From Phycisphaerales bacterium (GTDB taxonomy: Bacteria > Planctomycetota > Phycisphaerae > Sedimentisphaerales > UBA12454), in the NCBI GenBank assembly GCA_003142595.1, contig PLMU01000003.1:6501-70500 (forward strand): a stretch of 64,000 nt of DNA, read 5' to 3'. Below, piece after piece: positions 3,768 through 50,244 of this stretch. The translations under genes were made by a program, and so were the position numbers. Positions within the stretch are counted from its first letter, which is position 1. Each line of letters starts with the position of its first letter. Under the pieces are notes generated by a model that saw nothing but the letters and a program-made list of their open reading frames with translations, was not told the DNA's origin and made no database searches.

Positions 3768-3920
3768 ATCTATCTCCTGTAAAACTTTAAAACCTTAACC
3801 AATCGAATAGTTTACTGTAAAAAACAATATGATTAAAGAGAAAAGTTGGTTTAGATCAGCCTCGCTGCCTGCGACGGCGGTTTGTCATTCTTATACACAG
3901 ACCGTAACTGGTTTTGCTCC

Positions 3921-3949
3921 TTGACAACAAATGTTCGTGTAAATATATT
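3921..3949 (+). promoter_or_regulatory. sigma70-type promoter TTGACA-N17-TATATT; the -10 ends 7 nt before the ATG (leaderless geometry)
   Basis: TTGACA at 3921-3926, 17-nt spacer, TATATT at 3944-3949, ATG at 3957, no SD between them. The same block recurs at 5739 and 11694. Confidence 0.55.
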
Positions 3950-3956
3950 ACTGTCT

Positions 3957-5663: not shown

Positions 5664-5738
5664 AAAAGTAACCTTTGCAGGACTTAGGACTTTTACTGCT
5701 CGGCATTCTTACAGGCTGACCGTAACTGGTTTTGCTTC

Positions 5739-5767
5739 TTGACAATAAATGTTTGTGTAAATATATT
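5739..5767 (+). promoter_or_regulatory. sigma70-type promoter TTGACA-N17-TATATT, leaderless geometry
   Basis: TTGACA at 5739-5744, TATATT at 5762-5767, ATG at 5775. Confidence 0.55.
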
Positions 5768-5774
5768 GTTGCCT

Positions 5775-7820
5775 ATGCCCCAACAGGTAAAAAAAACTCT
5801 TGTCATTTCGATTTATTTCGCCTTAACAATCAGTGCATTGCTGGTTTTTTGGCAGACCAGAAATTTCGATTTCGTCAATTATGACGATAATACTTATGTA
5901 TCTGAAAATCCTCACGTTCTAAACGGCCTGACTTTCGACAATATCATTTGGGCTTTTACGGCCGGCCACGCGGGAAACTGGCACCCTTTGACCTGGCTTT
6001 CGCTTATGCTCGATTGCCAGTTGTTCGGTACCAACGCAGGCTGGATGCATCTTGTAAATCTCCTTTTGCACCTTGCAAATACTCTGCTGCTCTTTACGGT
6101 TCTGACTTCGGCAAGCTCAGTCGAGCCTAAAAAAATGACCAGCGCACTGTGGCCAAGCGCATTTGTAGCTGCGGCCTTTGCACTTCACCCGATGCATGTC
6201 GAATCGGTCGCCTGGATTACTGAGCGCAAGGACGTTTTAAGCACTTTTTTTTGGCTGCTTGCGATGTTAGTGTATGTGCGGTATATTAAGCAGCCCACCG
6301 CTGCGCGATACCTGCTTGTCTTATTAATTTTCGCTTTTGGTCTTATGGCAAAGTCTATGCTGGTTACTTTGCCGTTTGTATTTCTTCTGCTGGACTATTG
6401 GCCGCTTAATCGAATAAACGGTTTTAACTGGAAAATAATATACCGGTTAATTTTGGAGAAAATCCCTTTCATCTTTCTATCAGCGGTCTCAAGCGTTATC
6501 ACCTTTTTGGTTCAGCGAAAAAGCGGTGCGATGCCGGGCATTAATATTAATGGTCTTCCTTTGAAGGCCAGGACTGTCAATGCCTTCTTATCTTACGCAA
6601 GATACATAGGGGAAATGTTCTGGCCGCAAAATATGGCGGTATTTTATCCTTTTGACGCCGGCAGCTTTGCGTTCCGGCAGGTGGCGATGTGTGTTTTGCT
6701 GCTGCTTGTTATGTCCATTTTTGTGATTCGTTTCGGACGAAATCAAAAGTATTTGCCTGTAGGCTGGTTTTGGTTTGTCGGAACACTTGTGCCTGTCATA
6801 GGATTTGTTCAGGTTGGCTCGCAGGCCTATGCCGACCGTTACACTTATGTCCCGTATATAGGCCTGTTCATAATGCTCGCATGGGGTCTGCCCGAGTTGC
6901 TGGCAAAATTGCTTTCGGCGAGCCCGGTCGAGTCGCCTCAACGAAAAATCGCTCTCGGCTTATCTATGGTGATTGTGCTGACGACTCTCGGAATATGTGC
7001 CCATCGACAGACAAGTTATTGGAAAAACAGTTTTACACTTTTTTCGCACGCACTGGCGGTAACACAAAACAATTATGTCGCATACGGTAATCTTGGCGTT
7101 GCTTACGTTAATCTCAACAGTTACAACAAGGCGATAGATGCCTATCAGCAGGCCATAAAAATCAATCCGGAATACGCCTTTGCATATCATGCTCTTGGTG
7201 TTGCCTGCGCCAAACTCAGCCGTTATCAAGATGCTATAGAATCCTATAAACAAGCTATCAGGATAAAGCCGGATGAGGCAGATGCACACTATAATCTTGG
7301 CAATTCTTATGCTAAGCTTGGCCGCTGGCCCGAGGCGATAGATGCCTATAAGCAGGCCATAAGAATCCAGCCCGATTTAGCCGATGTATACAGAAATCTT
7401 GGCAATGCCTACGCCAGACTTGGCCGTTATCAAGACGCTATAGAATTCTATAAACAAGCTATCAGGAGAAAGCCGGATGATGCCGAGGCAGAGTTTGACC
7501 TTGGTAATGCCTGCTACGCCCTTGGCCGCCGGCCCGAGGCGATAGAGACATTCAGGCAGGCCATCGGAATCAAGCCGGATTACGCCGAAGCATACTATAA
7601 TCTTGGCATTGCTTATGACGACCTTGGCCGATATGCCGAGGCGATAGATGCCTATAAGCAGGCCGTCAGAATTAAGCCGGATGACGACGAGGCTCACTGT
7701 AGGCTTGGCGCTGCTTACCTGGCGATTGGCGACAAAAATTCCGCTCTGGCAGAATATAATATTCTTAAGTCTTTGAACTCAGAACTCGCAAATAAACTCT
7801 TAAAAGAGATTAACAAATGA
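5775..7820 (+). CDS. TMTC-like GT-C membrane domain + 7 TPR (array copy 2)
   Basis: Same N-domain motifs (NYDD, HPMHVESVAWITERKDVLSTFFW). Seven TPR units. Carries two copies of the 24-nt mini-insertion. Confidence 0.85.
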   Translation: MPQQVKKTLVISIYFALTISALLVFWQTRNFDFVNYDDNTYVSENPHVLNGLTFDNIIWAFTAGHAGNWHPLTWLSLMLDCQLFGTNAGWMHLVNLLLHLANTLLLFTVLTSASSVEPKKMTSALWPSAFVAAAFALHPMHVESVAWITERKDVLSTFFWLLAMLVYVRYIKQPTAARYLLVLLIFAFGLMAKSMLVTLPFVFLLLDYWPLNRINGFNWKIIYRLILEKIPFIFLSAVSSVITFLVQRKSGAMPGININGLPLKARTVNAFLSYARYIGEMFWPQNMAVFYPFDAGSFAFRQVAMCVLLLLVMSIFVIRFGRNQKYLPVGWFWFVGTLVPVIGFVQVGSQAYADRYTYVPYIGLFIMLAWGLPELLAKLLSASPVESPQRKIALGLSMVIVLTTLGICAHRQTSYWKNSFTLFSHALAVTQNNYVAYGNLGVAYVNLNSYNKAIDAYQQAIKINPEYAFAYHALGVACAKLSRYQDAIESYKQAIRIKPDEADAHYNLGNSYAKLGRWPEAIDAYKQAIRIQPDLADVYRNLGNAYARLGRYQDAIEFYKQAIRRKPDDAEAEFDLGNACYALGRRPEAIETFRQAIGIKPDYAEAYYNLGIAYDDLGRYAEAIDAYKQAVRIKPDDDEAHCRLGAAYLAIGDKNSALAEYNILKSLNSELANKLLKEINK

Positions 7821-9637
7821 AAACGCAACTTATGTCCGAACAGGCAAAAAAAACTCTTGTCCTTTCTATTTATTTCGCCTTGGCAGTCAGTGCGTTGCTG
7901 GTTTTCTGGCAGGTCAGAAACTCCGATTTCGTCTATTATGACGATGACGATTACGTATCTGCAAATCCCCATGTTTTAAACGGCTTTTCCCCCAGCAATC
8001 TGGCCTGGGCTTTTACCACCAACCTCTCGTCCCACTGGCATCCTTTGACATGGTTTTCGCTTATGCTCGATTGTCAATTGTTCGGCCCCAACGCAGGCAG
8101 GATTCATCTTATAAATCTCCTTTTGCACATTGCAAATACCCTGCTGCTCTTTATAGTTCTAAAAAAAATGACAGGCGCACTTTGGCAAAGCGCATTCGTG
8201 GCGGCTCTGTTTGCACTTCACCCACTTCACGTCGAATCCGTCGCCTGGATTGCTGAGCGAAAAGATGTATTAAGCACTTTCTTTTGGCTGCTTGCGATGT
8301 TGGCGTATGCGCAATATGTCAAAAAGCCCGACGCCGCGCGATACCTGCTTGTCTTATTAATTTTCGCTTTGGGTCTTATGGCAAAACCTATGCTGGTTAC
8401 TTTACCGTTTGTGCTGCTGCTGCTCGATTATTGGCCGCTCGAACGGATAGGCCGTTTTAGTCGGCAAATTTTTTATCGTTTGGTTTTGGAAAAGGTTCCT
8501 TTCTTCGCTCTTTCAGTCATCTCAAGTATTATCACCTTTTTAGTTATGCGAAGCGGTGGCACGGTGAGTGATATCTTTTCTTTGAACAGCAGAATCGCCA
8601 ACGCTTTTTTATCCTATGCAGAATATATCAGTAAAATGTTCTGGCCGTGCAATCTGGCAGTATTCTATCCTTTTAACGCCGGAAGTATTTCATTCGGGCA
8701 GGCTGCGATATGTGCTTTGCTGCTGCTTGTTATATCCATTTTTGTAATTCGTTTTGGACGAAATCAAAAGTATTTACCGATGGGCTGGTTCTGGTTCGTC
8801 GGAACACTTGCCCCGGTCATCGGCATTGTTCAGGTCGGCCGGCAGGCTTATGCCGACCGTTACACTTATATCCCATATATAGGTCTGTTCATAATGCTTG
8901 CATGGGGTTTGCCGCAGCTTCTTTCAAAATTGCTTTCGGCGAGCCCAGTCAAATCGCCTCAACGAAAAATCGCTCTCGGCTTACCGATGGTAATTGTGCT
9001 GACGACCCTGGGAATATGCGCCTATCAGCAGACAAGCTATTGGAAAAATAGTGTTACCCTATTTTCGCACGCACTGGCGGTAACACAAAACAATTATGTC
9101 GCATACAATAATCTTGGCATTGCTTACGTTGATCTTGGCCGCTGGCCCGAGGCGATAGATAACTGTAAGCAGGCCATAAACATCAAGCCGAATTTAGCCG
9201 AAGCACATGCCAATCTCGGCATTGCTTATGCTGCCCTTGGCCGCTTGCCCGAAGCGATAGACGCCTATAAGCAGGCCATAAACATCAAGCCGGATTTCGC
9301 CAAGGCATATTATAATCTCGGCGTTGCTTACGGCGAGCTTGACCGCAGCACCGAGGCTATAGAAGCCTTTAAGCAGGCCATACTTATCAAGTCAGATTAC
9401 GCCAAGGCATACCTTAATCTTGGCGTTGCTTACGGCAAGCTTGGCCGATTGCCCGAGGCGATAGAGGCCTTTAAGCAGGCCATAAAACTTAAGCCGGATT
9501 ATGTTGAGGCGCACAAAAATCTTGGCACTGCTTACCTGGCGATAGGCAACAAAAATTCCGCTATGGCGGAATTTAATATTCTTAAGTCTTTGAACTCAGA
9601 ACTCGCAAATAAACTCTCAAAAGAGATTAACAAATGA
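7817..9637 (+). CDS. TMTC-like GT-C membrane domain + 5 TPR (array copy 3)
   Basis: ATGA start/stop overlap with copy 2. YYDDDDY loop and HPLHVESVAWIAERKDVLSTFFW. Five TPR units. Confidence 0.85.
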   Translation: MKTQLMSEQAKKTLVLSIYFALAVSALLVFWQVRNSDFVYYDDDDYVSANPHVLNGFSPSNLAWAFTTNLSSHWHPLTWFSLMLDCQLFGPNAGRIHLINLLLHIANTLLLFIVLKKMTGALWQSAFVAALFALHPLHVESVAWIAERKDVLSTFFWLLAMLAYAQYVKKPDAARYLLVLLIFALGLMAKPMLVTLPFVLLLLDYWPLERIGRFSRQIFYRLVLEKVPFFALSVISSIITFLVMRSGGTVSDIFSLNSRIANAFLSYAEYISKMFWPCNLAVFYPFNAGSISFGQAAICALLLLVISIFVIRFGRNQKYLPMGWFWFVGTLAPVIGIVQVGRQAYADRYTYIPYIGLFIMLAWGLPQLLSKLLSASPVKSPQRKIALGLPMVIVLTTLGICAYQQTSYWKNSVTLFSHALAVTQNNYVAYNNLGIAYVDLGRWPEAIDNCKQAINIKPNLAEAHANLGIAYAALGRLPEAIDAYKQAINIKPDFAKAYYNLGVAYGELDRSTEAIEAFKQAILIKSDYAKAYLNLGVAYGKLGRLPEAIEAFKQAIKLKPDYVEAHKNLGTAYLAIGNKNSAMAEFNILKSLNSELANKLSKEINK

Positions 9638-11625
9638 AAAAGCAGCCTATGCCTCAACAGGCAAAAAAAACTCTTGTCCTTTCTATTTATTTCGCCTTAG
9701 CCTTCAGTACATTGCTGGTCTTCTGGCAGGTCAGGAATTTCAATTTCGTCCATTGCGATGATAATGATTACGTATCTAAAAATCCAAACGTTTTAAACGG
9801 TCTCACACCCGCCGCTGTCTCTTGGGCTTTTACAACCGATGTGTCCAGTCATTGGCATCCGCTGACATGGCTGTCGCTTATGCTCGATTGTCAGTTATTC
9901 GGAGCCAATGCAGGCGGGATTCATCTTGTAAATCTCCTTCTGCACATTGTAAATACCTTGCTGCTTTTTGCTGTTCTCAAAAAAATGACCGGCGCTCTTT
10001 GGCAAAGCGCGTTTGTGGCGGCTCTGTTTGCCCTTCACCCGCTTCACGTTGAATCGGTAGCATGGATTTCAGAACGAAAAGATGTATTAAGCACTTTTTT
10101 CTGGCTGCTGACAATGTTGGCGTATGTGCTGTATGTCAAACAGCCGAATGCCGCCCGATACCTGCTGACGATGTTGATGTTTGCTCTGGGCCTGATGGCC
10201 AAGCCGATGCTGGTAACTTTGCCATTTGTGCTTTTACTTTTGGACTATTGGCCATTCCAGCGGAAAATATCCCGGCATCTGCTGGTGGAAAAAATCCCTT
10301 TATTTGCTCTTGTTGCCGTTTCAAGTGTCGTTACTTTTATGGTGATGCGAAGCGGCGGAGCATTAATTAAGATGGATACGCTTCCTCTGAACAGCAGGAT
10401 TGCAAATGCTGTTTTATCTTACGTCAAATATCTATACAAAATGTTCTGGCCGCGGAACCTGGCGATATTTTATCCATTTGGCGCATCTGCAAGTTTCCCA
10501 TTTTGGCAGGTTGCGATGTGTGTTTTGCTGCTGCTTGTTATATCTATTTTTGTAATTCGGCTTGGACGAAATCAAAAGTATTTGCCCCTCGGCTGGTTCT
10601 GGTTTATCGGAACACTTGTGCCTGTAATCGGCATCATTCAGGTTGGTCAGCAGGCCTATGCGGATCGTTATACCTATGTCCCCTATATAGGTCTGTTCAT
10701 AATGATCGCATGGGGTCTGCCGGTGCTTCTTTCGAAATTGCCGCAGCGGAAAATCGCTCTGGGCCTATCTATGGTGATTGTGCTGACGACCCTGGGAATA
10801 TGCGCTCATCAGCAGACAAGCTATTGGAAAAACAGCGTTACTCTTTTTTCGCACGCGCTGGAGGTAACTCAAAAAAATTGGCTCGCATATAATGACCTTG
10901 GCCTTGCTTACGACGATCTTGGCCGCAGCGCAGAGGCGATGGAGAATTTCAGCCAGGCAATAAGAATAATACCGGATTATGCCGAAGCGCATACTAATCT
11001 CGGCATCGTTTACACCAAACTTGGCCGCTGGCAGAATGCTATAGATGAACATAAGCAGGCTATAAAATTCAAGCCGGATTTAGCTTTGGCACACAACAAT
11101 CTCGGCATTGTTTACACAAAGCTTGGCCGCTGGCAGGATGCTATAGATGCCTATAAGCAGGCCATAAAAATCAAGCCGGATTTAGTAGAGGCGTACAATA
11201 ATCTTGGCTATGCTTATTCCGCTCTTGGCCGCCATGCTGAGGCGATAGAGGCCTATAACCAGGCCATAAAATTCAAGCCGGATTTCGTAGACACACACTA
11301 TAACCTTGGCAATGCCTACTACGCCCTTGGCCGCTACCCCGAGGCAATAAATGTCTTCGAGCAGGTCATCAGAATAAAGCCGGATTATGCCGAGGCACAC
11401 TATAATCTCGGCATGACTTATTCCGCCCTTGGCCGCTGGCCCCAGGCGATAGATGCCTATAAGCAGACCATAAAATTAAAGCCAGATTTGGCCATGGCGC
11501 ACGAAAATCTTGGCGTTGCTTACCTTGTAGTAGGCGACAAAAATTCCGCTCTGGCCGAATATAATATTCTTAAGTCTTTAAACTCAGAACTTGCAAATAA
11601 TCTCTTAAATCAGATTAACAAATGA
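9634..11625 (+). CDS. TMTC-like GT-C membrane domain + 7 TPR (array copy 4)
   Basis: ATGA overlap with copy 3. HCDDNDY loop and HPLHVESVAWISERKDVLSTFFW. Seven TPR units. Confidence 0.85.
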   Translation: MKKQPMPQQAKKTLVLSIYFALAFSTLLVFWQVRNFNFVHCDDNDYVSKNPNVLNGLTPAAVSWAFTTDVSSHWHPLTWLSLMLDCQLFGANAGGIHLVNLLLHIVNTLLLFAVLKKMTGALWQSAFVAALFALHPLHVESVAWISERKDVLSTFFWLLTMLAYVLYVKQPNAARYLLTMLMFALGLMAKPMLVTLPFVLLLLDYWPFQRKISRHLLVEKIPLFALVAVSSVVTFMVMRSGGALIKMDTLPLNSRIANAVLSYVKYLYKMFWPRNLAIFYPFGASASFPFWQVAMCVLLLLVISIFVIRLGRNQKYLPLGWFWFIGTLVPVIGIIQVGQQAYADRYTYVPYIGLFIMIAWGLPVLLSKLPQRKIALGLSMVIVLTTLGICAHQQTSYWKNSVTLFSHALEVTQKNWLAYNDLGLAYDDLGRSAEAMENFSQAIRIIPDYAEAHTNLGIVYTKLGRWQNAIDEHKQAIKFKPDLALAHNNLGIVYTKLGRWQDAIDAYKQAIKIKPDLVEAYNNLGYAYSALGRHAEAIEAYNQAIKFKPDFVDTHYNLGNAYYALGRYPEAINVFEQVIRIKPDYAEAHYNLGMTYSALGRWPQAIDAYKQTIKLKPDLAMAHENLGVAYLVVGDKNSALAEYNILKSLNSELANNLLNQINK

Positions 11626-11693
11626 AAAAGTAACCTTTGCAGGACTTTTACGGTTCATCATTCTTACACACCGACCGTAACTCGTTTTGTTTC

Positions 11694-11722
11694 TTGACAA
11701 CAGATGTTTGTGTAAATATATT
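11694..11722 (+). promoter_or_regulatory. sigma70-type promoter TTGACA-N17-TATATT, leaderless geometry
   Basis: TTGACA at 11694-11699, TATATT at 11717-11722, ATG at 11730. Confidence 0.55.
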
Positions 11723-11729
11723 GTTGCCT

Positions 11730-13415
11730 ATGCCCCAACAGGTAAAAAAGCCTCTTGTCATTTCGATTTATTTCGCCTTAGCAATCAGTGCATTGCTGGT
11801 CTTCTGGCAGGTCAGAAATTTCGATTTCGTCAATTACGATGACGATTTGTATGTATATGAAAATCAGCATGTTGTAAGCGGTCTGACTTTCGACAATATC
11901 ATTTGGGCTTTTACGACCATTCACACAGGCTACTGGCATGCCTTAACCTGGCTTTCGCTAATGCTCGATTGTCAGTTGTTTGACCCCAACCCTGAAGGTT
12001 TTCATCTTACTAATCTTTTCTTTCACATCGCAAACACTTTGCTTCTTTTCCTTGTCCTCAAACAAATGACAAAAGCACTTTGGCAAAGCGCATTTGTGGC
12101 GGCTCTGTTTGCACTTCATCCGATGCATGTCGAATCGGTCGCCTGGATTGCCGAACGCAAGGACGTCCTGAGCACTTTCTTTTGGCTGCTTGCGATGTTA
12201 GCGTATGTGCGGTATGTCAGCCGCCCCAACGCCGCGCGCCACCTGCTTGTCTTATTAATTTTCGCTTTAGGTCTTATGGCAAAGCCTATGCTGGTAACAT
12301 TGCCGTTTGTGTTGCTTTTGCTGGACTACTGGCCGCTTGACCGTATTGGCCGTTTTCAATTGCGGACACTCTATCGTTTGATTCTGGAAAAAATCCCTTT
12401 TATTGTTCTTTCAATTGTTTCAAGTGCCATCGTTTTTCTTGTCCAGCAGAGCAGCAAGATATTAATACCATTTGCCCGGTTCCCTTTAAAGTTTCGTATC
12501 GGTAATGCCTTTATCTCTTATGCCAGGTATATAGAAAAAATGATTTGGCCAAACTACCTGGCCGTGTTTTATCCTCACCCTGTTGAAAACGTATCAATTT
12601 TATACGCTGTAATATCAGCCATTCTGCTATTGGCCGTAACGATTCTTGTCCTTCGATTCGCCCAAAATCGCAGATATCTTGTCACAGGCTGGTTCTGGTA
12701 TCTTGGAATGCTCATCCCCGTCATCGGCATTATTCAGGTTGGTGCGCAGGCCTATGCCGACCGTTACACTTATATCCCATATATAGGTCTGTTCATAATG
12801 CTTGCATGGGGTTTGCCGCAGCTTCTTTCAAAATGGCCTCAACGAAAAATCGCTCTGGGCTTATCGATGGTGATTGTGCTGACGGCCCTGGGAATATGCG
12901 CCCATCGGCAGGTAAGCTATTGGAAAAACAACGTTACTCTTTTTTCGCACGCACTGGAGGTCACACAAAATAATTGGCTAGCACACAATAATCTTGGCAA
13001 TGCTTACGCCAGGCTTGGCCGTTACGAAGAAGCAATAGATGCTTATCAGCAGACCATAAAGCTCAATCCGGATTTAGCCGAAGCACCTAATAATCTTGGA
13101 ATTGTTTACGGCAAGCTTGGCCGCTTGCCCGAGGCGATAGATGCCTTCAGCCAGGCCATAATAATAGATCCGGATTACGTCAAGGCACACTATAATCTTG
13201 GCGTTGCTTACGATAAGCTTGACCGCTTGCCCCAAGCGATAGATGCCTATAAGCAGGCCATAAAAATCAAGCCGGATTTAGCCGAAGCGCACAATAAGCT
13301 TGGCGTTGCTTACTTGGTAGTAGGCGACAAAAATTCCGCTCTGGCAGAATATAATATTCTTAAGTCTTTGAACTCCCAACTCGCAAATAATCTCTTAAAT
13401 CAAATTAACAAATAA
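11730..13415 (+). CDS. TMTC-like GT-C membrane domain + 4 TPR (array copy 5)
   Basis: NYDDDLY loop and HPMHVESVAWIAERKDVLSTFFW. Four TPR units. Same C-terminal tail. Confidence 0.85.
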   Translation: MPQQVKKPLVISIYFALAISALLVFWQVRNFDFVNYDDDLYVYENQHVVSGLTFDNIIWAFTTIHTGYWHALTWLSLMLDCQLFDPNPEGFHLTNLFFHIANTLLLFLVLKQMTKALWQSAFVAALFALHPMHVESVAWIAERKDVLSTFFWLLAMLAYVRYVSRPNAARHLLVLLIFALGLMAKPMLVTLPFVLLLLDYWPLDRIGRFQLRTLYRLILEKIPFIVLSIVSSAIVFLVQQSSKILIPFARFPLKFRIGNAFISYARYIEKMIWPNYLAVFYPHPVENVSILYAVISAILLLAVTILVLRFAQNRRYLVTGWFWYLGMLIPVIGIIQVGAQAYADRYTYIPYIGLFIMLAWGLPQLLSKWPQRKIALGLSMVIVLTALGICAHRQVSYWKNNVTLFSHALEVTQNNWLAHNNLGNAYARLGRYEEAIDAYQQTIKLNPDLAEAPNNLGIVYGKLGRLPEAIDAFSQAIIIDPDYVKAHYNLGVAYDKLDRLPQAIDAYKQAIKIKPDLAEAHNKLGVAYLVVGDKNSALAEYNILKSLNSQLANNLLNQINK

Positions 13416-41737: not shown

Positions 41738-42844
41738 ATGGAAAGGCAGAAAATGAAAAAGAAAGGCTTTACACTGGTTGAATTGCTGGTGGTTATCGCC
41801 ATTATAGCAATGTTGCTGGCAATCCTTATGCCGGCTTTGAGCAAAGTAAGACAGCTTGCTCAACGTATTATGTGCAGCACGAACCTGTCAGGTATCGGCA
41901 AGGCGATGCTGACTTACAGCACAGATGACAAATATGAATCTTTCCCGATATCCGGAAGCCCCAGCGCTTATTGGGACAGGGGCAGCGGCACAAAGGCAGG
42001 TATTTGTTCATGGAACTGGATAGATCCAAAAGCATTTCCGGAAACAGTAGCCTCCACTGCTTACAGGGCCACCGTTAGTTCATGTCTCTATCTGCTTATA
42101 AAATACGCAGATGTATCGTCCAACCAATTCATTTGCCCGGGTTCAGACATGAAAAAATTCGAATTGAAAAATTATAATATGGGCAGCGACGTATTTGCAA
42201 ATAATACTTCAACTGATGTGTGGGATTTCGGCTCGAAACTCGGACTAAGTGGAGTAGGTGGAGAAAAAACACCAGGAACCCGGGGTAAAGGACATCAAAG
42301 TTATTCTTATGAGCTGCCTTTTGTATTTAATGGGATTAAGGACAATGGGAGTGCTAAGGCAAGCGTCACCGCAAGCTGCCATCCTGCAACGGCCACATCT
42401 AATCCTTCCAAGGCTGTTCTGGCTGACAGAAACCCATACTGGCAATATCCTTCTGATTCCGGAAGAACTACGGCTTTTCTATATGTATGGGATTCTACAA
42501 GCAACAGGGTACACCCGAGTTCTATTGCTAAAGGAAACGCCATATATCATCAAAGCGATGGCCAGAACGTTCTCTATGTTGACCAACATTCAAAATTCGA
42601 AAAAGGTGCTAATTGCGGCATTGAATCGGATAACATTTACACTACCTGGAGTTCGTCGCTTGGTGGTCCTGCTACCCCAGGAGTAATTGGTAACGGTGAA
42701 GAAAAATTTAGACAGTGCGGAGCAGGCGCGGCGAACTATCCTGCTAGCTCTCCTGTGCTGAATGTTGAACCAGGGGATGATTCGTATTGGCCGGTTAGTG
42801 GAGACGACAACTATCTGGTTTCCGACCTGGATAGTGATGTTTAA
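41738..42844 (+). CDS. prepilin-type N-terminal cleavage/methylation domain protein (DUF1559-like pseudopilin)
   Basis: KKGFTLVELLVVIAIIAMLLAILMPAL prepilin signal. The C-terminal GQNVLYVDQHSKF resembles the H-X9-DG tail of the DUF1559 family. Confidence 0.8.
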   Translation: MERQKMKKKGFTLVELLVVIAIIAMLLAILMPALSKVRQLAQRIMCSTNLSGIGKAMLTYSTDDKYESFPISGSPSAYWDRGSGTKAGICSWNWIDPKAFPETVASTAYRATVSSCLYLLIKYADVSSNQFICPGSDMKKFELKNYNMGSDVFANNTSTDVWDFGSKLGLSGVGGEKTPGTRGKGHQSYSYELPFVFNGIKDNGSAKASVTASCHPATATSNPSKAVLADRNPYWQYPSDSGRTTAFLYVWDSTSNRVHPSSIAKGNAIYHQSDGQNVLYVDQHSKFEKGANCGIESDNIYTTWSSSLGGPATPGVIGNGEEKFRQCGAGAANYPASSPVLNVEPGDDSYWPVSGDDNYLVSDLDSDV

Positions 42845-42889
42845 TAAATACTAATAACAGAATAAAGACTGTATCAGGCTGCAGTCGTA

Positions 42890-42928
42890 CCGGCCTTTCG
42901 TATATATTGCGAAAGGCCGGTTTGTTTT
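42890..42928 (+). terminator. intrinsic terminator
   Basis: CCGGCCTTTCG-loop-CGAAAGGCCGG (11-bp stem) followed by TTTGTTTT. Confidence 0.8.
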
Positions 42929-43035: not shown

Positions 43036-44298
43036 TTAAATTTGTTTCACTTCTAATATTGAATTATATTCCCCGAACGGATTTAGCTCAATATTCTCAT
43101 TGTATGGGTCCTGCTGCCATTGGCCGTCAACGACCATACGATAGCGGTATTTTCCCGGAGCAAGCTCCATGGCCAGTTCCCATTTGCCGTCTTTGCCCGG
43201 CTGCATAATTGTCTGTTGCGGTTTCCAATTATTAAAGTCTCCGGCAATCTGCACCTTTTGGGCACGCGGATAAAGCGTAACAAACTTGATGGAATTGCCT
43301 AATTGGCGGGCGCCATAAAAATCATTAAGTTTATCATTAATATCTTTCTTCACTCTTGTTTTTGTTTCACCCTTTAGACCGGCAAGAAGCTCCTGTGCCG
43401 AGGAGCTTATCGACTCAAGGTTATTATCCAACTCCTCGATAATCTCTTTTCTTTCCTTTGCCTGTATAGAGGCCTGTATCACCGGTTCGTGTTTATCAAC
43501 AGCAACCGCAATCTTCTTTTGCTCGACAAGCGTATCTGTGGCAATTAATTCCTGGGCCAAACCCTGAAAGTCCTTGTGTCCTCTGCTGGCAGGGTCATAT
43601 TCGCATATAGGCTGGCCAAGACTGGCGGCTTCTTTCAATTTAGTGTTAAAATTGACAACGGTCCAGAACATCCTGCCTGCAAAATTCTTTCGAAGCTCCG
43701 CTAAAATCTCCCTTCCCATCTTTGTGCGAATATCATACATACTGGCAAGAACCATAACATTTATATGCTGTGAGCACTGTTTGCACAAAATACTGAGAGT
43801 ATCGAGTTGCCTGCTGAGACCGTGAAGCGAAAAGTATCCGGTCTCTACCGGCACAATAACATCTGTCGATGCACGCAGAGCATTGAACGTCAGCAGATTT
43901 ACCGCCGGAGGACAATCCACTATTACATAGTCAAAATCCCTGGCAACAGCGGCAAGCACATCCTTTAAACAATTTTCACGGTCCGTCATTCCATTAGTCT
44001 GCTGCTCAAACGCAGCGAGGTCTATACTTGCCGGTGCAAGTTCAAAGTTATCGCTAATCTCCCACAATACTTCGGTAAGCTTTATCGGCTCACCTCGCCG
44101 TGAACTGAGCAACACATCATAAATACCCTGTTCAATTTGCTCATCAGGCACAGCAAGACCTACGGCGCAATGGCCCTGCGGATCCATATCAATCAGTAAG
44201 GTCTTCTTGCCTTCGTCAGCGAGAGCGCTGGCAAGATTTATCGATACGGTAGTTTTCCCACATCCGCCCTTCTGATTAATCACCGCTATAGTTCTCAT
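43036..44298 (-). CDS. ParA/MinD-family ATPase fused to a C-terminal AMPK-beta/CBM48-type glycogen-binding domain
   Basis: Deviant Walker A INQKGGCGKTT. The C-terminus is QIAGDFNNWKP...GKYRYRMVVDGQWQQDPYN, very close to the AMPK beta GBD (GSFNNW...YKFFVDGQW.HDP). Start at the ATG at 44298 after AGGGA. Confidence 0.8.
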   Translation of the reverse strand: MRTIAVINQKGGCGKTTVSINLASALADEGKKTLLIDMDPQGHCAVGLAVPDEQIEQGIYDVLLSSRRGEPIKLTEVLWEISDNFELAPASIDLAAFEQQTNGMTDRENCLKDVLAAVARDFDYVIVDCPPAVNLLTFNALRASTDVIVPVETGYFSLHGLSRQLDTLSILCKQCSQHINVMVLASMYDIRTKMGREILAELRKNFAGRMFWTVVNFNTKLKEAASLGQPICEYDPASRGHKDFQGLAQELIATDTLVEQKKIAVAVDKHEPVIQASIQAKERKEIIEELDNNLESISSSAQELLAGLKGETKTRVKKDINDKLNDFYGARQLGNSIKFVTLYPRAQKVQIAGDFNNWKPQQTIMQPGKDGKWELAMELAPGKYRYRMVVDGQWQQDPYNENIELNPFGEYNSILEVKQI

Positions 44299-44327
44299 AA
44301 GATAATCCCTTATCAACCTAAATATTT

Positions 44328-44661: not shown

Positions 44662-47160
44662 ATGCAGCTAAATAGCGATAAATCACTTGAGGAGCTAACT
44701 GTTCCAAACAATAGATGGCTGACATCCAGGATTAGCCTGTTAATAGTTCTGATAGTTGCCGTTTGTGCAGCAGTTCTTATAACACATTGGCCCGCTTTGT
44801 CGGCAAAGGCTTTATCTTTCGATGACAATCGATATTTTCAAGAAAATTTTCTCGTGCGGAGTCCCAGTTTAGAGTCGGCATGGCGGTTTTTAACAGAGGT
44901 TCTTAATCCGTCAACCGTAGGCGGATACTATCAGCCATTAACTATGATTTCACTGATGCTGGACTATGCTATAGGCGGACAGACAGATAATATAATGACG
45001 TTTCATAGAACCAGCCTTCTGTTTCATGTTTTGAATACTGCGCTAATAATTGTGCTCCTTTATCAGTTGTTTGGTTCAGAATGGATAGCGGCAGGGGTGG
45101 GGTTGCTTTTCGGGGTACATCCTTTGACAGTAGAAACAATCCCCTGGATAGGTGAACGCAAAACCCTGCTGGCTGCATTTTTTGCATTTTGGAGTCTAAT
45201 TCTTTACGTTCGTTTCGCCCGCAGCGGTAATTCCAAAGCTCGTATAGGCTCTATTGTTATGTATGCGCTGGCTCTAATGTCCAAGCCAACAAGCACACCG
45301 CTGCCTGTTTTGATGCTGCTGATGGACTACTGGCCGCTGAGACGGTTAACACGACAAACTATTATAGAAAAATGGCCGTTTTTTGTTATCGGCGGCATAT
45401 CTGCTGTTGTAACATATATTTCACAAAGCCTTACCGCTTCAGTAATTCTGCCTGAATCATACGGTATAATGCGGGTTCCGCTGGTTATTTGTCATAATAT
45501 TATTTTCTATCTTTTTAAAATGGTTTGGCCGGTAAATCAATCTTCGCATTACGCCTTTCCAGACCCGCTTGGATTTTCTACTCCGATGGTAAGGATTGGC
45601 ATCATAGGTACTTTAATACTGATTCCTTTATTGATAATATCATTGCGGTGGACACGGGCGGCACTAGTCGGCTGGCTGATTTTCTTTGTGATGGTTTTTC
45701 CAACAATGCAGATGCTTCAATTCAGTGACGTTATCGCTTCAGATAAATTTGTTTATCTGCCTTCGATAGGAATACTGATGGCACTGGCGGCATTCTTGAG
45801 TTGGATATGCCGTGTCGATGATGTTCGCCGGCATATGGCAAGATATGCAGTGATGGCAATTGTGGTTATAACGCTGGCGGGTGCAGAATCTTTTGCCACA
45901 CGGCAGTATCTTGCGGACTGGAAAGATACAACCAGTCTTTTCGAACATATGACTAAAGTAACTCCTAATGCCGTATCTCCATATAATAATATGGGGGCGG
46001 CTCTTGGTGAAGCAAATGATTTAGAGGGAGCTGCAAGATGTTTTGAAAAAGTGCTAACAATAAAGCCCAACAATATTGATGCGCACATTAATCTGGGCAA
46101 AATATATGCCGACCAGGGTAAATATGATGAGGCTATGTTACATTATAACAAAGTGCTGCAAATAGACCCTGGAGAGGTTAGCGCATATGTTCATATAGGT
46201 GTTATGCTAACCAAACAGGGACGCATTGATGAGGCAATATCGCACTACCGTAAAGCAATAGAGCGTAAAATGCGGTATCCTGCTCCTTTACATGTTGGAC
46301 TTGGTACGCTTTTTCTCCAGCAGGGCAAATTAGAAGAGGCAATATATGAGTTCAATTACGCTCTGAAATTAAAGCCCGATGCAACAACCTACAATAATTT
46401 GGGAGTAGCATTGAGTTTAAAGGGCAGAATAAGTGAGGCAATGGAATGTCACAAGAAGGCTATAGGGCTTGACCCCAAAAATGCTGAGGCACACTATAAT
46501 CTTGCAAACACTTTGCTCGCACAAAACAAGTTCAGGCAGGCGATTAGCGAATACGAGGAAGCAGTGTACCTCAATCCCAAATACACCAAAGCGCACATTA
46601 ACCTCGCTGTTGCGTTGATGCAGGAAAACCGGTTCGATGAGGCAATCGAACATGCTGCTGAGGCGGTAGATATTGAGCCGAATAATGTCAATGCGCAATA
46701 CAACCTTGCTGCAGCATTAAGCCAGCGAGGCCGACTTGATGAGGCCATTGACCACTTTAACAAAGCGGTGAAGATTGAGCCGAATAACGCAGATACGCTT
46801 TACAATCTCGCAATAGTACTTGGCCAAAGTGGACGATTTGACGAGGCAATTGACCGCTTTGCCGAGGTGGTAAAAATCGATCCTAATAATATCAATGCGC
46901 ATTACGGTTTAGCTCAAGCCCTGGTTTACAAAGGTCGATTTGATAAATCCGCCGACGAATATCGTCAGGTATTGAGATTACAGCCGCAGGATGCCGATAC
47001 GTATTGTCTTCTCGGCAATGTTTTTGCCAGGCAGGGCAAGACTGAGCAGGCAGCCGCCGAATATCGTCAGGCGCTTAAAATAAATCCCCAACATTCCGCA
47101 GCACAGGAAGGGCTCAAGAGCGTTTTGTCTCTACAGGACGCAAATCAAATAGCAAAATAA
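44662..47160 (+). CDS. TMTC-like GT-C membrane domain + about 11 TPR (divergent distal paralog)
   Basis: FDDNRYF first-loop motif and HPLTVETIPWIGERKTLLAAFFAFW (same signature as the array). Eleven TPR units. GGAG SD. Confidence 0.85.
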   Translation: MQLNSDKSLEELTVPNNRWLTSRISLLIVLIVAVCAAVLITHWPALSAKALSFDDNRYFQENFLVRSPSLESAWRFLTEVLNPSTVGGYYQPLTMISLMLDYAIGGQTDNIMTFHRTSLLFHVLNTALIIVLLYQLFGSEWIAAGVGLLFGVHPLTVETIPWIGERKTLLAAFFAFWSLILYVRFARSGNSKARIGSIVMYALALMSKPTSTPLPVLMLLMDYWPLRRLTRQTIIEKWPFFVIGGISAVVTYISQSLTASVILPESYGIMRVPLVICHNIIFYLFKMVWPVNQSSHYAFPDPLGFSTPMVRIGIIGTLILIPLLIISLRWTRAALVGWLIFFVMVFPTMQMLQFSDVIASDKFVYLPSIGILMALAAFLSWICRVDDVRRHMARYAVMAIVVITLAGAESFATRQYLADWKDTTSLFEHMTKVTPNAVSPYNNMGAALGEANDLEGAARCFEKVLTIKPNNIDAHINLGKIYADQGKYDEAMLHYNKVLQIDPGEVSAYVHIGVMLTKQGRIDEAISHYRKAIERKMRYPAPLHVGLGTLFLQQGKLEEAIYEFNYALKLKPDATTYNNLGVALSLKGRISEAMECHKKAIGLDPKNAEAHYNLANTLLAQNKFRQAISEYEEAVYLNPKYTKAHINLAVALMQENRFDEAIEHAAEAVDIEPNNVNAQYNLAAALSQRGRLDEAIDHFNKAVKIEPNNADTLYNLAIVLGQSGRFDEAIDRFAEVVKIDPNNINAHYGLAQALVYKGRFDKSADEYRQVLRLQPQDADTYCLLGNVFARQGKTEQAAAEYRQALKINPQHSAAQEGLKSVLSLQDANQIAK

Positions 47161-48027: not shown

Positions 48028-48552
48028 TTATTTGCGACGACGCAGGAACAATCCGCCAAGACCCAATAGTGCCATTGTAACCGGTTCTGGAACAATCGTA
48101 ATAGTGTTGCTCTGCAGGTCTACATCATCAAAGTTGCCATCAGCGCTCTGAAAAGCGGTGATAGTATTGCCAGCAACTGCACCACTATAGGTTACTGTTA
48201 GCCAAACACCTTCTGGATAAACACTGGTAAAGGACGTCATGGTCCAGATTTCTCCGTTGCCATAAGTTGCATCACTACCGTTTCCCAGCATTGCCAGACT
48301 AGCCTCAGTATCTGCTGAATCTGTCGGAGCATTAGCGCCAATAGTGCCCAAGCTCAAAGTACCAACACTACCACCCGTGGCCTTTTTGATGCAAATAGCC
48401 ATCTGAAGATCAATCTGATCACTGGAAGGCACAACGCTAAGGTTTATAGTGCCTGAACCGGGAGTGTTGTCGCCGCTTAGCGTCATAGATACTGTTGCAC
48501 TAGCCAACGAGGCCATTCCAAGAACTAATACTAAAGTTAACATTTTTTTCAT
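48028..48552 (-). CDS. PEP-CTERM sorting-domain secreted protein (paralog A)
   Basis: Start at the ATG at 48552 after GGAGA. Signal peptide MKKMLTLVLVLGMASLASA. The C-terminus is VPEP + TM + RRRK. Confidence 0.85.
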   Translation of the reverse strand: MKKMLTLVLVLGMASLASATVSMTLSGDNTPGSGTINLSVVPSSDQIDLQMAICIKKATGGSVGTLSLGTIGANAPTDSADTEASLAMLGNGSDATYGNGEIWTMTSFTSVYPEGVWLTVTYSGAVAGNTITAFQSADGNFDDVDLQSNTITIVPEPVTMALLGLGGLFLRRRK

Positions 48553-48744
48553 TGTTCGGTCTCCATACATAAAAATTAACAACTTAATTGCTTTAGCCTG
48601 AAACCAGGCACAATTTACATTAAAAACGTTTGCGCGTTTTAAAGTCGATTCGATAGCCACAAAGCTTGCCCGCCTTAGGCGGGGTACTAATACATAGAAT
48701 CTAAGCTAATGACTAATTGATTGTTTTCTCGACCCCGATTAAAT

Positions 48745-48970: not shown

Positions 48971-49664
48971 AGACACTGATTTCGCAGACTAACGCAGAAC
49001 TCTAAATAACTATATTATTAGACGCTGATTTCGCAGAGTGACGCAGAGATATTTAAACCGCTTTTTGACGCTTATTTCGCAGATTTCACAGGCTTATTTC
49101 AAACAATTTTTGCGGGCAGTCTGAAATATCTTGCGTTTAACGCTCAACGATTCGCCGAAATTCAACAGTAGGCCGACATCTATATTTGTTGCTTTTAGGT
49201 AATTGACCAACTGTACTTCATGTGCCGAATTGAGCGTCTGAACAGCTTTAATTTCAACGATGACTTTATCGGACACTACAATATCGGCAAAATATTCTCC
49301 TACAATTTGATTTGCATAATGAACGGTAATAGGTTTTTCCGCCACAGCCGAAAGCCCTATACTTTGCAATTCTATTACCATTGCTTTGTGGTAAATTTTT
49401 TCGAGAAAATCGTACCCGAGAGTATTGTGAACATTGTGGGCTGCTTTTATAATCTTTTCCGTAAGATCCGAATGTTCATACATAATTATCTCCTTTAGCG
49501 TCAATCAGCGAAATCAGCGTCTAAAAGACCGTTTTGCGACAGTATATCTCAACTTCAGGCAGTTTACAATCCAAAAGAGTTATAAACATATCGGTAAAAT
49601 CAGCGAAATCAGCGTCAAAAAATAGTTATTTAGAGTTCTGCGTCAATCTGCGAAATCAGCGTCT
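48971..49664. mobile_element. candidate non-autonomous or novel cassette: GxxExxY gene framed by three nested pairs of inverted repeats
   Basis: The outer arms 48971-49013 and 49622-49664 are 40/43 identical in inverted orientation. Inner copies of AGACGCTGATTTCGCAGA lie at 49020 and 49066 (forward) and at 49496-49522 and 49597-49617 (inverted). Confidence 0.55.
49094..49483 (-). CDS. GxxExxY protein (PD-(D/E)XK nuclease-fold family)
   Basis: Start at the ATG at 49483 after AAGGAG. GYDFLEKIY is the GxxExxY motif. ADIVVSDKVIVEIKAV gives a D...ExK pattern. Confidence 0.8.
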   Translation of the reverse strand: MYEHSDLTEKIIKAAHNVHNTLGYDFLEKIYHKAMVIELQSIGLSAVAEKPITVHYANQIVGEYFADIVVSDKVIVEIKAVQTLNSAHEVQLVNYLKATNIDVGLLLNFGESLSVKRKIFQTARKNCLK

Positions 49665-49740: not shown

Positions 49741-50244
49741 TTATTTTTTCTTCCTGAGCAGCAGTCCGCCGAGGCAAAGCAGGGCGATTGTTGCTGGTTC
49801 TGGAATCACAATAGTGTTACTCTGCATGTCTACATCATCAAAGTTACCATCAGCGCTCTGAAAAGCGGTAATAGTATCGCCGGCAACTGCACCAGTGTAG
49901 TTTACTGTTAGCCAGACACCTGTTGGATAAACACTGGTAAAGGACGTCATGGTCCAGATTTCTCCGTTGCCATAAGTTCCATCCACACCCATCATTGCCA
50001 AACTAGCATCAGTATCTGCTGAATCTGTCGGAGCAGAAACGCCCATAGTACCCAAGTCCAGAGTACCCGAGCCTATGAGGCCAATAGCCATCTGAAGGTC
50101 AATCTGACCAGTGGGTGAAGGCACAACATACATACTTATAGTGCCTGAACCAGGAGTGCTGTCGCCGCTTAGCGTCATAGACACTGTTGCACTGGCCAAC
50201 GAGGCCATAGCAAGAACTAAAACTAAAACTAACAACTTCTTCAT
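49741..50244 (-). CDS. PEP-CTERM sorting-domain secreted protein (paralog B)
   Basis: Closely similar to paralog A along its whole length. The C-terminus is IPEP + TM + RKKK. GGAGG SD. Confidence 0.85.
   Translation of the reverse strand: MKKLLVLVLVLAMASLASATVSMTLSGDSTPGSGTISMYVVPSPTGQIDLQMAIGLIGSGTLDLGTMGVSAPTDSADTDASLAMMGVDGTYGNGEIWTMTSFTSVYPTGVWLTVNYTGAVAGDTITAFQSADGNFDDVDMQSNTIVIPEPATIALLCLGGLLLRKKK

Follow-up and report, generated by a model that had tools for sequence, protein, structure and literature searches.

ATPases of the ParA/MinD group are general placers in bacteria, and act on chromosomes, plasmids, carboxysomes, chemoreceptor arrays and division sites. To our knowledge, every studied case depends on a separate partner protein that joins the ATPase to its cargo. 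The classical ParA ratchet requires an activator of the ATPase on this cargo. The gene analysed here, from the chromosome of a member of the Phycisphaerae (Planctomycetota), encodes an ATPase of this group that is fused to a carbohydrate-binding module (CBM), and it can be compared with known systems on both sides of the fusion.

The Soj/ParA proteins of the ParABS systems (PDB 1wcv/2bek, H. pylori Soj 6iub, 8ray) have the same fold and size as the ATPase part of the fusion protein, with 36-41% sequence identity. The deviant Walker A motif with its signature lysine, the catalytic aspartates and the equivalents of the DNA-binding arginines are common to both. Unlike Soj/ParA, the fusion protein has a 160-aa C-terminal extension (linker and CBM48) and a histidine at position 43, falls into a separate group in a neighbour-joining (NJ) tree, and is encoded without ParB or parS nearby in the regions searched. 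The McdA-McdB, PpfA-TlpT, ParC-ParP and PomZ-PomXY systems are comparable in a proposed way, in that a ParA-type ATPase uses the nucleoid to spread a large cytoplasmic cargo other than the chromosome. McdA (6non/6nop) superimposes on the fusion ATPase with a target TM score of ~0.75, at low sequence similarity (E ~4e-9). In systems of the McdAB type, the cargo adaptor or activator is a separate protein and the cargo is a protein assembly, whereas in the fusion protein the cargo-binding module is built into the ATPase and the proposed cargo is a polysaccharide.

On the carbohydrate side, the best match in sequence and structure is the CBM of the AMPK beta subunit (1z0n, 1z0m, 2f15, 4yee). The identity is 26-29%, and AMPK beta residues W100, K126, W133 and N150 are kept. 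The AMPK module is part of a kinase scaffold subunit, whereas the module studied here is attached to a P-loop ATPase. It also differs by an extra N-terminal strand (DFYGxRQ), which it has in common with bacterial stand-alone CBMs. Finally, PhaM and PhaF tether polyhydroxybutyrate (PHB) granules to the nucleoid. They are not ATPases, and their binding is not switched by nucleotides. The proteins are unrelated to the fusion protein, but the proposed outcome is the same, namely that a storage granule is bridged to DNA for sharing at division. A preliminary description of the locus had counted PHB granules among the cargoes of ParA-like ATPases; such ATPases are not known to position these granules, a task carried out by PhaM and PhaF.

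Architecture of the fusion protein

The fusion gene is complete and encodes a product of 420 aa, which consists of a ParA/Soj-type ATPase domain, a variable linker and a C-terminal CBM48/AMPK-beta module. Its features, and one intergenic element, are located as follows in the window, by which we mean the whole 64-kb stretch of DNA that was analysed.

43036..44298, minus strand: ParA-CBM48 fusion gene including the stop codon, 420 aa (ORF list and translation)
43525..44298, minus strand: ParA/Soj-type deviant-Walker-A ATPase domain, aa 1-258 (Pfam, PDB sequence matches, Foldseek)
44248..44271, minus strand: deviant Walker A motif K10-G-G-C-G-K15-T-T with signature lysine K10 (read from the sequence)
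44170..44190, minus strand: D37-M-D39-P-Q-G-H43 motif, with His43 where the canonical Soj motif DPQGN has Asn
43633..43728, minus strand: candidate nucleoid-binding basic residues R191, K220 and K222 (alignment to T. thermophilus Soj)
43342..43524, minus strand: variable linker, aa 259-319 (low conservation, low pLDDT)
43378..43464, minus strand: conserved linker helix, aa 279-307, a possible coiled coil (AlphaFold2 helix, pLDDT ~60)
43039..43341, minus strand: CBM48/AMPK-beta-type module, aa ~320-420 (Pfam, PDB 1z0n, Foldseek)
43063..43227, minus strand: predicted sugar-binding residues (alignment to AMPK beta1, codons verified)
43225-43227, 43138-43140, 43117-43119, 43075-43077 and 43063-43065, minus strand: codons of W358, R387, W394, F408 and N412, respectively
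42889..42921, no strand assigned: hairpin with a 14-bp stem between convergent genes (terminator scan)

On the minus strand, the ATG codon of Met1 is found at 44296-44298 and the stop codon at 43036-43038. The mechanically called ORF extends further upstream, to a TTG at 44316, but Met1 is invariant in 65 aligned homologues. The preliminary description of this ORF as a ParA/CBM48 fusion is confirmed by the translation and by matches to Pfam AAA_31, CbiA, AMPK1_CBM and CBM_48, each above its gathering score. The motifs that it quoted (KGGCGKTT at aa 10-17, GDFNNW and YRYRMVVDGQWQQDP) are all found in the translation.

The assignment of the N-terminal part to the ParA/MinD ATPases with a deviant Walker A motif is well founded. 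AAA_31 matches aa 1-180 with an E value of 2.8e-49 (167.9 bits, cut-off 27), and CbiA matches with 2.8e-19 (69.7 bits, cut-off 25.4). Among PDB sequences, the domain matches ParA of entry 8ray (4.7e-49) and T. thermophilus Soj (1.2e-44), and Foldseek comparison with Soj/ParA structures gives target TM scores of 0.79-0.84. None of the 135 family members that are ungapped at that column lacks K10 or K15, and the motif residues K10, K15, D37, D39 and D128 are all conserved across the wide family. No catalytic motif known from Soj-type ParA proteins is missing from the domain. His43 can serve as a family-specific marker: it is found in 135 of 136 members of the fusion family, while all five canonical ParA/Soj sequences read DPQGN, DAQGN or DPQGA at this site.

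In the alignment with T. thermophilus Soj, R191 is equivalent to R189 and K220 to R218. The role of positions 191, 220 and 222 in DNA binding is one that we carry over, by assumption, from B. subtilis Soj. Positions 191 and 220 are both conserved in the close family, where R191 is invariant, yet in the wide family just 64 of 139 members have the arginine equivalent to R189; a basic residue is found at position 220 in 88/139 and at position 222 in 127/139. The low count for the arginine may mean that nucleoid binding is not universal, or that the alignment is weak in this region.

Across the family, linker lengths range from almost nothing to over 250 aa. The AlphaFold2 model has pLDDT values below 50 at aa 256-279 and 307-319, which flank a single predicted helix. 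The helix has the consensus R.E.V..L..KL.AISSSA.ELLA, in which conserved hydrophobic residues follow the 3-4-3-4 spacing of a heptad pattern. A301 and L304 are invariant, and conservation reaches 90% or more at L294, I297, S298, S300, E303 and L305. Relatives with short linkers (e.g. P0398 and P0306) do not have the helix. Of the coiled-coil linker proposed earlier, the helix and its hydrophobic pattern therefore stand, but the coiled coil itself is only possible.

The C-terminal domain resembles the AMPK beta module, as the preliminary description had suggested. AMPK1_CBM matches aa 346-419 with an E value of 1.3e-13 (51.4 bits, cut-off 26.8), CBM_48 with 1.5e-9 (38.5 bits, cut-off 22.4), and among PDB sequences 1z0n is matched at 3.6e-8. 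The domain model has a pLDDT of 93.5, and its CBM48 core is preceded by the extra strand mentioned above. The best Foldseek matches are the AMPK beta1 CBM entries 1z0n and 1z0m (target TM 0.82); CBM48 domains of branching enzymes rank next. The rmsd is 2.5 Å for 1z0n, and 1.4-1.7 Å for CBMs inside full AMPK structures.

The alignment pairs W100, K126, W133, L146 and N150 of AMPK beta1 with W358, R387, W394, F408 and N412. We take L146 and N150 to be carbohydrate-binding residues of the AMPK module. For W100, K126 and W133, roles in carbohydrate binding are supported by mutation data (PMC6274970). In a set of 139 diverse members, the tryptophan at position 358 is present in all 139, W394 in 134, arginine or lysine at position 387 in 133, and asparagine or aspartate at position 412 in 119. 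The carbohydrate-binding aromatic residues, on which the earlier assignment hinged, are thus in place, and conservation within the domain is highest at the equivalents of the sugar contacts. As far as sequence can tell, the C-terminal domain is an AMPK-beta-type CBM48 with its predicted sugar-binding site intact.

A gene joined by an error of assembly or gene calling from two adjacent ones would also present as a fusion, and in a few database entries (L006, L009) the two halves do appear as separate ORFs. We considered whether these represent a natural two-gene version, with ParA and a separate CBM adaptor, and rejected this because the ORFs overlap out of frame, as is typical of frameshift errors, and one of the ParA tails is frameshift junk. 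The identical 420-aa protein (P0001) is found on 24 independent public contigs. Among the 80 best species loci in GTDB, all 74 complete genes are fused, and both AAA_31 and AMPK1_CBM are found in 99 of 106 representatives of 50%-identity clusters, sampled from the top 150 matches and reaching down to ~35% identity. These counts already refute an artefact, which we regard as practically out of the question. The same survey of the distribution places members of the family among proteins of Myxococcota metagenome-assembled genomes (MAGs), and 524 species genomes in GTDB match patterns of the CBM subtype. For distant family members, the taxa named in two cluster look-ups were Phycisphaerales and Myxococcota only. 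Two of the related loci lie on long sequences: L069, with the fusion near 5.056 Mb of the Sedimentisphaerales chromosome OY970194.1, and L035, on the 2.9-Mb scaffold JBGLNQ010000001.1. Mean column conservation is much higher in the ATPase (0.86) and the CBM (0.77) than in the linker (0.49). Its presence in the relatives and the strong conservation of both domains relative to the linker show that the fusion is genuine and maintained by selection.

Genomic context and relation to chromosomal ParA

The fusion gene forms a single-gene unit between one divergent and one convergent neighbour. The convergent neighbour, on the plus strand, ends at 42844 and the fusion gene at 43036; the hairpin between them is probably a bidirectional terminator that closes the unit. 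Pfam annotation of 38 ORFs, together with precomputed Pfam matches for the close neighbours, identified housekeeping genes only. Scans for Rfam families and tRNA genes found a single tRNA-Ser in the window, far from the fusion gene.

The 64-kb window contains no parB, no second parA and no plasmid genes. A tblastn search of the window with two real ParB/Spo0J proteins gave no match, and the parS consensus was matched once at three mismatches, compared with 1.5 matches expected by chance. None of the PLSDB plasmids carries the fusion. A plasmid origin was considered and discarded, because the PLSDB matches are limited to the ATPase, at no more than 42% identity, and the CBM query finds only genes of the GlgB type. 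The lack of a parB gene, a parS cluster and a plasmid context, noted in the preliminary description, is thus borne out for the window. The same applies to related loci: a scan for the GERRxRA motif and tblastn did not find parB within 10 kb of the fusion gene in any of 80 species loci. A weak ParB match 8 kb away in locus L060 was the only one; it was set aside because the ORF is ParB-nuclease-like, has a GHHR motif and lies in an apparent defence island. In the canonical controls (L095, L096), parA and parB adjoin each other as soj-spo0J pairs.

In the NJ tree, which is unrooted and contains only five canonical Soj/ParA sequences, none of them from Planctomycetota, the fused ATPases are split from the canonical ones in 96/100 bootstraps. 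According to BLAST scores, fused ATPase domains are also closer to one another across phyla than to canonical Soj. In view of this likeness across phyla, the split in the tree, His43 and the lack of a nearby parB, the fusion protein is not a canonical chromosomal ParA, judging from its sequence and surroundings. It could still be a chromosomal partition ATPase to which a glycogen sensor was added, so that segregation or replication control would respond to carbon stores in a manner akin to AMPK. Such a role would fit the fact that, among solved structures and annotated records, the ATPase is most similar to chromosomal Soj/ParA, and that the equivalents of the DNA-binding arginines of Soj are kept. 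A precedent is provided by AMPK, whose CBM mediates inhibition by glycogen (PMC6274970). The missing parB in the window and the 80 loci, the missing parS in the window, the adjacency of canonical soj-spo0J pairs, the bootstrap split and the exchange of Asn for His43 all argue against a partition ATPase, which we consider distinctly unlikely. The occurrence of the fusion in Myxococcota MAGs points in the same direction, as the studied members of that phylum keep a canonical ParABS system.

When three neighbours on each side were clustered for the 80 loci, no universal neighbour gene emerged. Secreted proteins, a TIM-barrel isomerase, DUF1559, GltX and Hsp20 recur in a lineage-specific manner only, and do not amount to a conserved partner gene. 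There is no adaptor or activator of the McdAB type beside the fusion gene, and no neighbour family is kept across the 80 loci. These findings also bear on the possibility that the protein is an ATP switch anchored on glycogen, which recruits or regulates other proteins (glycogen enzymes, or a division or localisation factor) in the way of MinD, FlhG or BcsQ, without involving the nucleoid. In the ParA/MinD family, a C-terminal appendage usually sets the working surface, as does the membrane helix of MinD. The patchy presence of the R189-equivalent arginine in the wide family, a weak similarity to BcsQ (Pfam, E 4.7e-13), and genes of unknown function that follow the fusion gene in the same direction in two distant loci would agree with a recruiting role. 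However, no partner gene is conserved across the family, close family members retain both basic DNA-binding positions, and MinD, FlhG and BcsQ are much more distant from the ATPase than Soj is. A switch of this kind, independent of the nucleoid, therefore appears unlikely.

Link to glycogen and proposed function

The nearest stand-alone homologues of the CBM (P0236, P0223) match it along the entire module with 54-56% identity, and share even the N-terminal extension of the fusion protein. They lack an ATPase domain, and their genes belong to glycogen clusters: stand-alone homologues are located in GlgA(GT5)-GH57 operons in five loci. It is this location that connects the CBM of the fusion protein to glycogen. 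Pfam annotation did not reveal glg genes in the 64-kb window around the fusion gene. In one Myxococcota locus, a phosphoglucomutase-family gene is found three genes away, the sole neighbour of this kind.

The beta-sandwich could in principle bind another glycan, or serve in protein-protein interactions. Modules of the CBM48 fold can bind xylan, and feruloyl esterases (6rzn, 8bf3) are among the fold matches; the CBM of AMPK beta also contacts protein within the AMPK complex. Against this, the sugar-contact equivalents are what the domain conserves best, the closest stand-alone relatives belong to glycogen operons, and the protein has no signal peptide, with alpha-glucan being the obvious polysaccharide of the cytoplasm. 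A ligand other than glycogen is thus very improbable.

From the domain content, we infer a dedicated, partner-less ATPase of the ParA family that has glycogen as its cargo and holds the particles through its CBMs while bound to the nucleoid as a dimer, a proposal to which we give about an even chance of being correct. In the ATP-bound state, two ATPase domains would form a sandwich dimer through the signature lysine K10, and the dimer would bind nucleoid DNA non-specifically via the basic patch of R191, K220 and K222. Each subunit would carry its CBM on a linker of ~60 aa, and the two CBMs would grip alpha-glucan chains of glycogen via W358, R387, W394 and N412. The two subunits may be held together by the linker helix, as by a zipper. 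With many dimers on each particle, glycogen would be fastened to the nucleoid, and ATP hydrolysis would free the dimers, so that the attachment would be dynamic. As a result, glycogen would be distributed along the chromosome, and both daughter cells would receive a share. If there were no tether, it would be expected to gather in the nucleoid-free poles.

The latter is the situation in E. coli, where glycogen forms phase-separated, nucleoid-excluded condensates at the old pole that are inherited unequally, displace the nucleoid and skew division (PMC12706056). The unequal inheritance of these condensates makes the need for a glycogen-positioning system plausible. Whether the fusion protein would only tether glycogen, or also space the particles in a directed way as in ParA-ParB and McdA-McdB, hinges on stimulation of the ATPase by something at the particle. 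As no activating partner or conserved neighbour was found in the 80 loci, the classical gradient mechanism is unsupported as such. The distribution or tethering of glycogen suggested in the preliminary description is backed in part, by the residues of the sugar site, the lack of an adjacent parB in the window and the 80 loci, the relatives in GlgA-GH57 operons and the separate group formed by the ATPase, but an activator on the cargo was not found.

Our literature search did not find a description of a ParA-CBM48 fusion or of ParA-driven glycogen positioning, in agreement with an earlier remark to this effect. A paper on the essential genes of Planctopirus (PMC10632474) contains nothing on ParA, ParB or glycogen. 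Tentatively, and with somewhat less than even confidence, we suggest that the protein represents the first dedicated positioning system for polysaccharide particles and the first ParA with built-in cargo recognition, which would bridge glycogen to the nucleoid under the control of ATP, and would prevent polar condensates like those of E. coli in more than 500 species.

The module may be of use as a genetically encoded tether of glycogen to DNA, or as a glycogen reporter. For the cells that encode it, a nucleoid tether would be the obvious countermeasure to polar glycogen of the E. coli type (PMC12706056). The fusion family also raises the question of whether a ParA can function without an activator like ParB. 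A large and conserved family of ATPases with a glycogen-binding module of its own would add carbohydrate polymers as a class of cargo, and a minimal architecture, to the systems by which bacteria position the contents of their cells.

Architecture and distribution of the fusion

The ParA-CBM gene, its two neighbours and a parS-like match lie in the window as follows:

43036-44298, minus strand: ParA-CBM gene, a single ORF of 420 codons plus stop
44662-47160, plus strand: TPR/PMT_2 membrane protein gene (832 aa), divergent neighbour
41738-42844: DUF1559/N-methyl protein gene, convergent neighbour
43043-43058, minus strand: sole parS-like match in the window, within the 3' end of the ParA-CBM gene

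Upstream, the mechanical ORF continues to a TTG at 44316. AAGGGA precedes the ATG at 44296-44298, whose Met1 is invariant in the 65 aligned homologues. Matches to AAA_31 (aa 1-180, E 2.8e-49), CbiA, AMPK1_CBM (aa 346-419, E 1.3e-13) and CBM_48 (E 1.5e-9) all exceed the curated Pfam cut-offs. The preliminary description had proposed a fusion of a ParA-type ATPase with a CBM48 module; the motifs that it quoted are present, and the match is far beyond chance.

The identical protein occurs on 24 public contigs. An initial homology search gave 120 homologues with 60-100% identity. Almost all of them are complete fusions, and those with names are labelled Phycisphaerae, Sedimentisphaerales or Anaerohalosphaeraceae. 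The phylogenetic survey suggested earlier was carried out as a scan of GTDB, with one genome per species and CBM-specific patterns, and it detected a relative in 524 species; among the best 80 loci, all 74 genes that lie wholly within their contig encode the fusion. When 1.84 billion representatives of 50%-identity clusters were searched exhaustively with HMMER, the best 150 matches listed had identities down to about 35%. Pfam analysis of 106 of these found AAA_31 in all 106 and AMPK1_CBM in 99, and one fused cluster derives from Myxococcota MAGs. The contig, GTDB and cluster counts therefore indicate a large, old family, and the probability that the fusion is an assembly artefact is negligible. 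The few entries with separately coded ParA and CBM halves were traced to frameshifts.

The linker (aa 259-319) is poorly conserved and variable in length. AlphaFold2 predicts a single helix in it (aa 279-307, modest confidence), which is missing in short-linker relatives. Its conserved hydrophobic positions (287, 290, 294, 297, 301, 304) have heptad-like spacing. Of the coiled-coil linker put forward earlier, the predicted helix and its spacing thus stand; they are compatible with a coiled coil, but do not prove one. In the distant family member P0373 (446 aa, ENA metagenome), the linker carries an insert that resembles an excisionase/MerR-type helix-turn-helix (EEIAEYLDKEVSTIRSWA...EWKFNREEIDEWLEK). 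If real, it would place a second DNA-binding element between ATPase and CBM.

The ATPase domain and its genomic setting

The ParA-CBM protein belongs to the ParA/MinD superfamily. Among solved structures, those nearest in sequence to its ATPase domain are chromosomal ParA/Soj proteins (8ray ParA, E 4.7e-49; T. thermophilus Soj, 1.2e-44; H. pylori Soj, 2e-37), and the whole-protein AlphaFold2 model matches ParA/Soj structures with target TM 0.79-0.84. The catalytic residues (signature lysine K10, K15 of Walker A, and the aspartates D37, D39 and D128) are present, and are kept in every member of the 139-sequence alignment that is ungapped at those columns.

The window otherwise has ordinary chromosomal content (RecA, AlaS, GltX, HisD, aconitase, glycine-cleavage P and T proteins, LigA, RibD, FtsW/RodA, PEPCK). 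Pfam analysis of its ORFs found no ParB, second ParA, glycogen gene, plasmid or phage module. A tblastn search of the window with two genuine ParB/Spo0J proteins from annotated parAB operons gave no match, the single match to the parS consensus has 3 mismatches and is below chance expectation, and PLSDB contains no plasmid with the fusion. The lack of a parB gene, parS cluster or plasmid context, noted before from the sequence, is thus confirmed for the window. Because its neighbours are divergent and convergent, and the convergent gene ends are separated by a hairpin (14-bp stem), the ParA-CBM gene appears to be monocistronic.

No parB was found within 10 kb of the fusion gene in 80 species loci, whereas canonical parA and parB in the comparison loci are adjacent. 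Against a canonical set without Planctomycetota, fused ATPase domains across lineages score 178-273 bits mutually and 138-181 bits versus canonical ParA/Soj, which reach 215-234 bits among themselves; in a neighbour-joining tree with the same restriction, 41 fused and 5 canonical domains separate in 96/100 bootstraps. His43 (DPQxH motif) marks the fused ATPases (135/136). The missing parB, the bit scores, and the tree split together with His43 argue against a mere chromosomal ParA. As tested, the protein falls outside both canonical ParABS and two-component McdAB-type systems. That it is a variant of Soj equipped with a glycogen sensor would agree with its closest structures, less so with these separations, and appears distinctly unlikely.

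The TPR protein at 44662-47160 resembles five tandem paralogues of 592-693 aa at 3882-13415 (plus strand), with an N-terminal membrane region and C-terminal TPR arrays, and is the sixth of its kind; three of the five (3882-5663, 7817-9637, 9634-11625) weakly match a PMT_2-type glycosyltransferase. This TPR/PMT neighbour is found in 7 related loci as well. Two paralogous secreted proteins (48028-48660 and 49741-50244, both minus strand), with a PEP-CTERM-like tail (VPEP..., hydrophobic stretch, RRRK) and no Pfam domain, flank a PD-(D/E)XK (PDDEXK_3) gene at 49094-49504. In two Anaerohalosphaeraceae loci (L004 11364-13958, L005 11388-13985), but not in the window, ftsK (DNA translocase) is convergent with the ParA-CBM gene. 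In one Phycisphaerae MAG, a 209-aa ParB-nuclease-like ORF (L060 1029-1658, minus strand, GHHR motif) lies 8 kb from the fusion gene, next to putative acetyltransferase and DUF488 genes and an ABC-type ATPase gene; the region resembles a mobile or defence island more than a partition locus. In a distant lineage (P0250, 44% identity), a 424-aa gene without Pfam match follows the fusion gene and abuts or overlaps its end (L093 9350-10624, L094 1721-2995); it could be a lineage-specific partner. In a Myxococcota metagenome contig (L090 14465-17101), two adjacent ArsA/Get3-like ATPase genes, about 5 kb from the ParA-CBM gene, are followed by a small gene and a PHB_acc_N/phasin-domain gene; the fusion gene there is also flanked by a phosphoglucomutase-family gene and a Ppx/GppA phosphatase.

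The CBM48 module and alpha-glucans

The C-terminal domain is a CBM48. In the PDB it is closest in sequence to the carbohydrate-binding modules of AMPK beta1 and beta2 (1z0n, E 3.6e-8), followed by those of pullulanase, plant glucan phosphatase and GlgB. Foldseek with the model of aa 320-420 (mean pLDDT 93.5) placed 1z0n and 1z0m on top (target TM 0.82), ahead of CBMs that form part of complete AMPK structures (rmsd 1.4-1.7 A) and of branching-enzyme CBM48 domains. HMMER aligns W100, K126, W133, L146 and N150 of AMPK beta1 with W358, R387, W394, F408 and N412. Glycogen binding by the AMPK module is lost with W100G or K126Q and weakened with W133L (PMC6274970). Loss of the binding aromatics would have spoken against a glucan ligand; W358 is present in 139/139 and W394 in 134/139 wide-family members, alongside Y386 (139/139), R/K387 (133/139) and N/D412 (119/139).

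A CBM-only query retrieved mostly pieces of fusions, plus true stand-alone proteins. Two of these, P0236 (54% identity) and P0223 (56%), have the complete module together with its N-terminal YG.R.V extension. Their genes directly follow those for a GT5 glycogen synthase and a GH57 enzyme in five loci, two of which have adjoining GH77 and GH57/DUF3536 genes. These stand-alone relatives connect the CBM subfamily with alpha-glucan metabolism without recourse to the comparison with AMPK. A CBM fold adapted to another ligand is, in view of the conserved residues, very improbable. Among the best matches to the full-length query are also P0243 (1812 aa) and P0374 (1436 aa), whose respective 17 and 7 separate matches to the CBM point to CBM48 repeat arrays.

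A possible link between nucleoid and glycogen

In the most likely reading, the ParA-CBM protein would tether glycogen particles to the nucleoid. ATP-bound dimers would sit on the nucleoid, and the two CBMs of each dimer, on flexible, perhaps zipped linkers, would hold glycogen particles. Many weak, nucleotide-switched links could then keep the particles attached to the chromosome and distributed along it, and hydrolysis would let the links go. Domain content, motifs, conservation, distribution and the missing partner are results of the sequence analysis; that the protein dimerises, binds DNA and glucan, and acts on glycogen in the cell in this way is inferred.

In B. subtilis Soj, DNA binding is mediated by arginines R189 and R218. 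They align with R191 and K220 of the ParA-CBM protein, which are candidate DNA-binding residues. All members of the close family keep R191, but only 64/139 wide-family members do; in the latter, K/R220 occurs in 88/139 and K/R222 in 127/139. A glycogen-anchored recruiter, for which the nucleoid has no role, would fit the variability of R191 in the wide family better than its invariance in the close one, and seems unlikely. The remaining probability falls to roles beyond those considered here.

The weakest step of the tether reading is the cargo, on which no ATPase activator is known; one would be needed for directed spacing, not for simple tethering. The proposed working mode is that of orphan ParA cargo-positioning systems, from which the ParA-CBM protein differs in carrying its adaptor on the same chain as the ATPase and in having a polysaccharide as its proposed cargo. 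The literature searched contains no description of a ParA-CBM fusion or of glycogen positioning by it.

To our knowledge, E. coli has no ParA-CBM protein. Its glycogen forms condensates at the poles, where there is no nucleoid; these are passed on with the old pole and displace the nucleoid from the centre (PMC12706056). A nucleoid tether would counter exactly this type of polar glycogen condensation.
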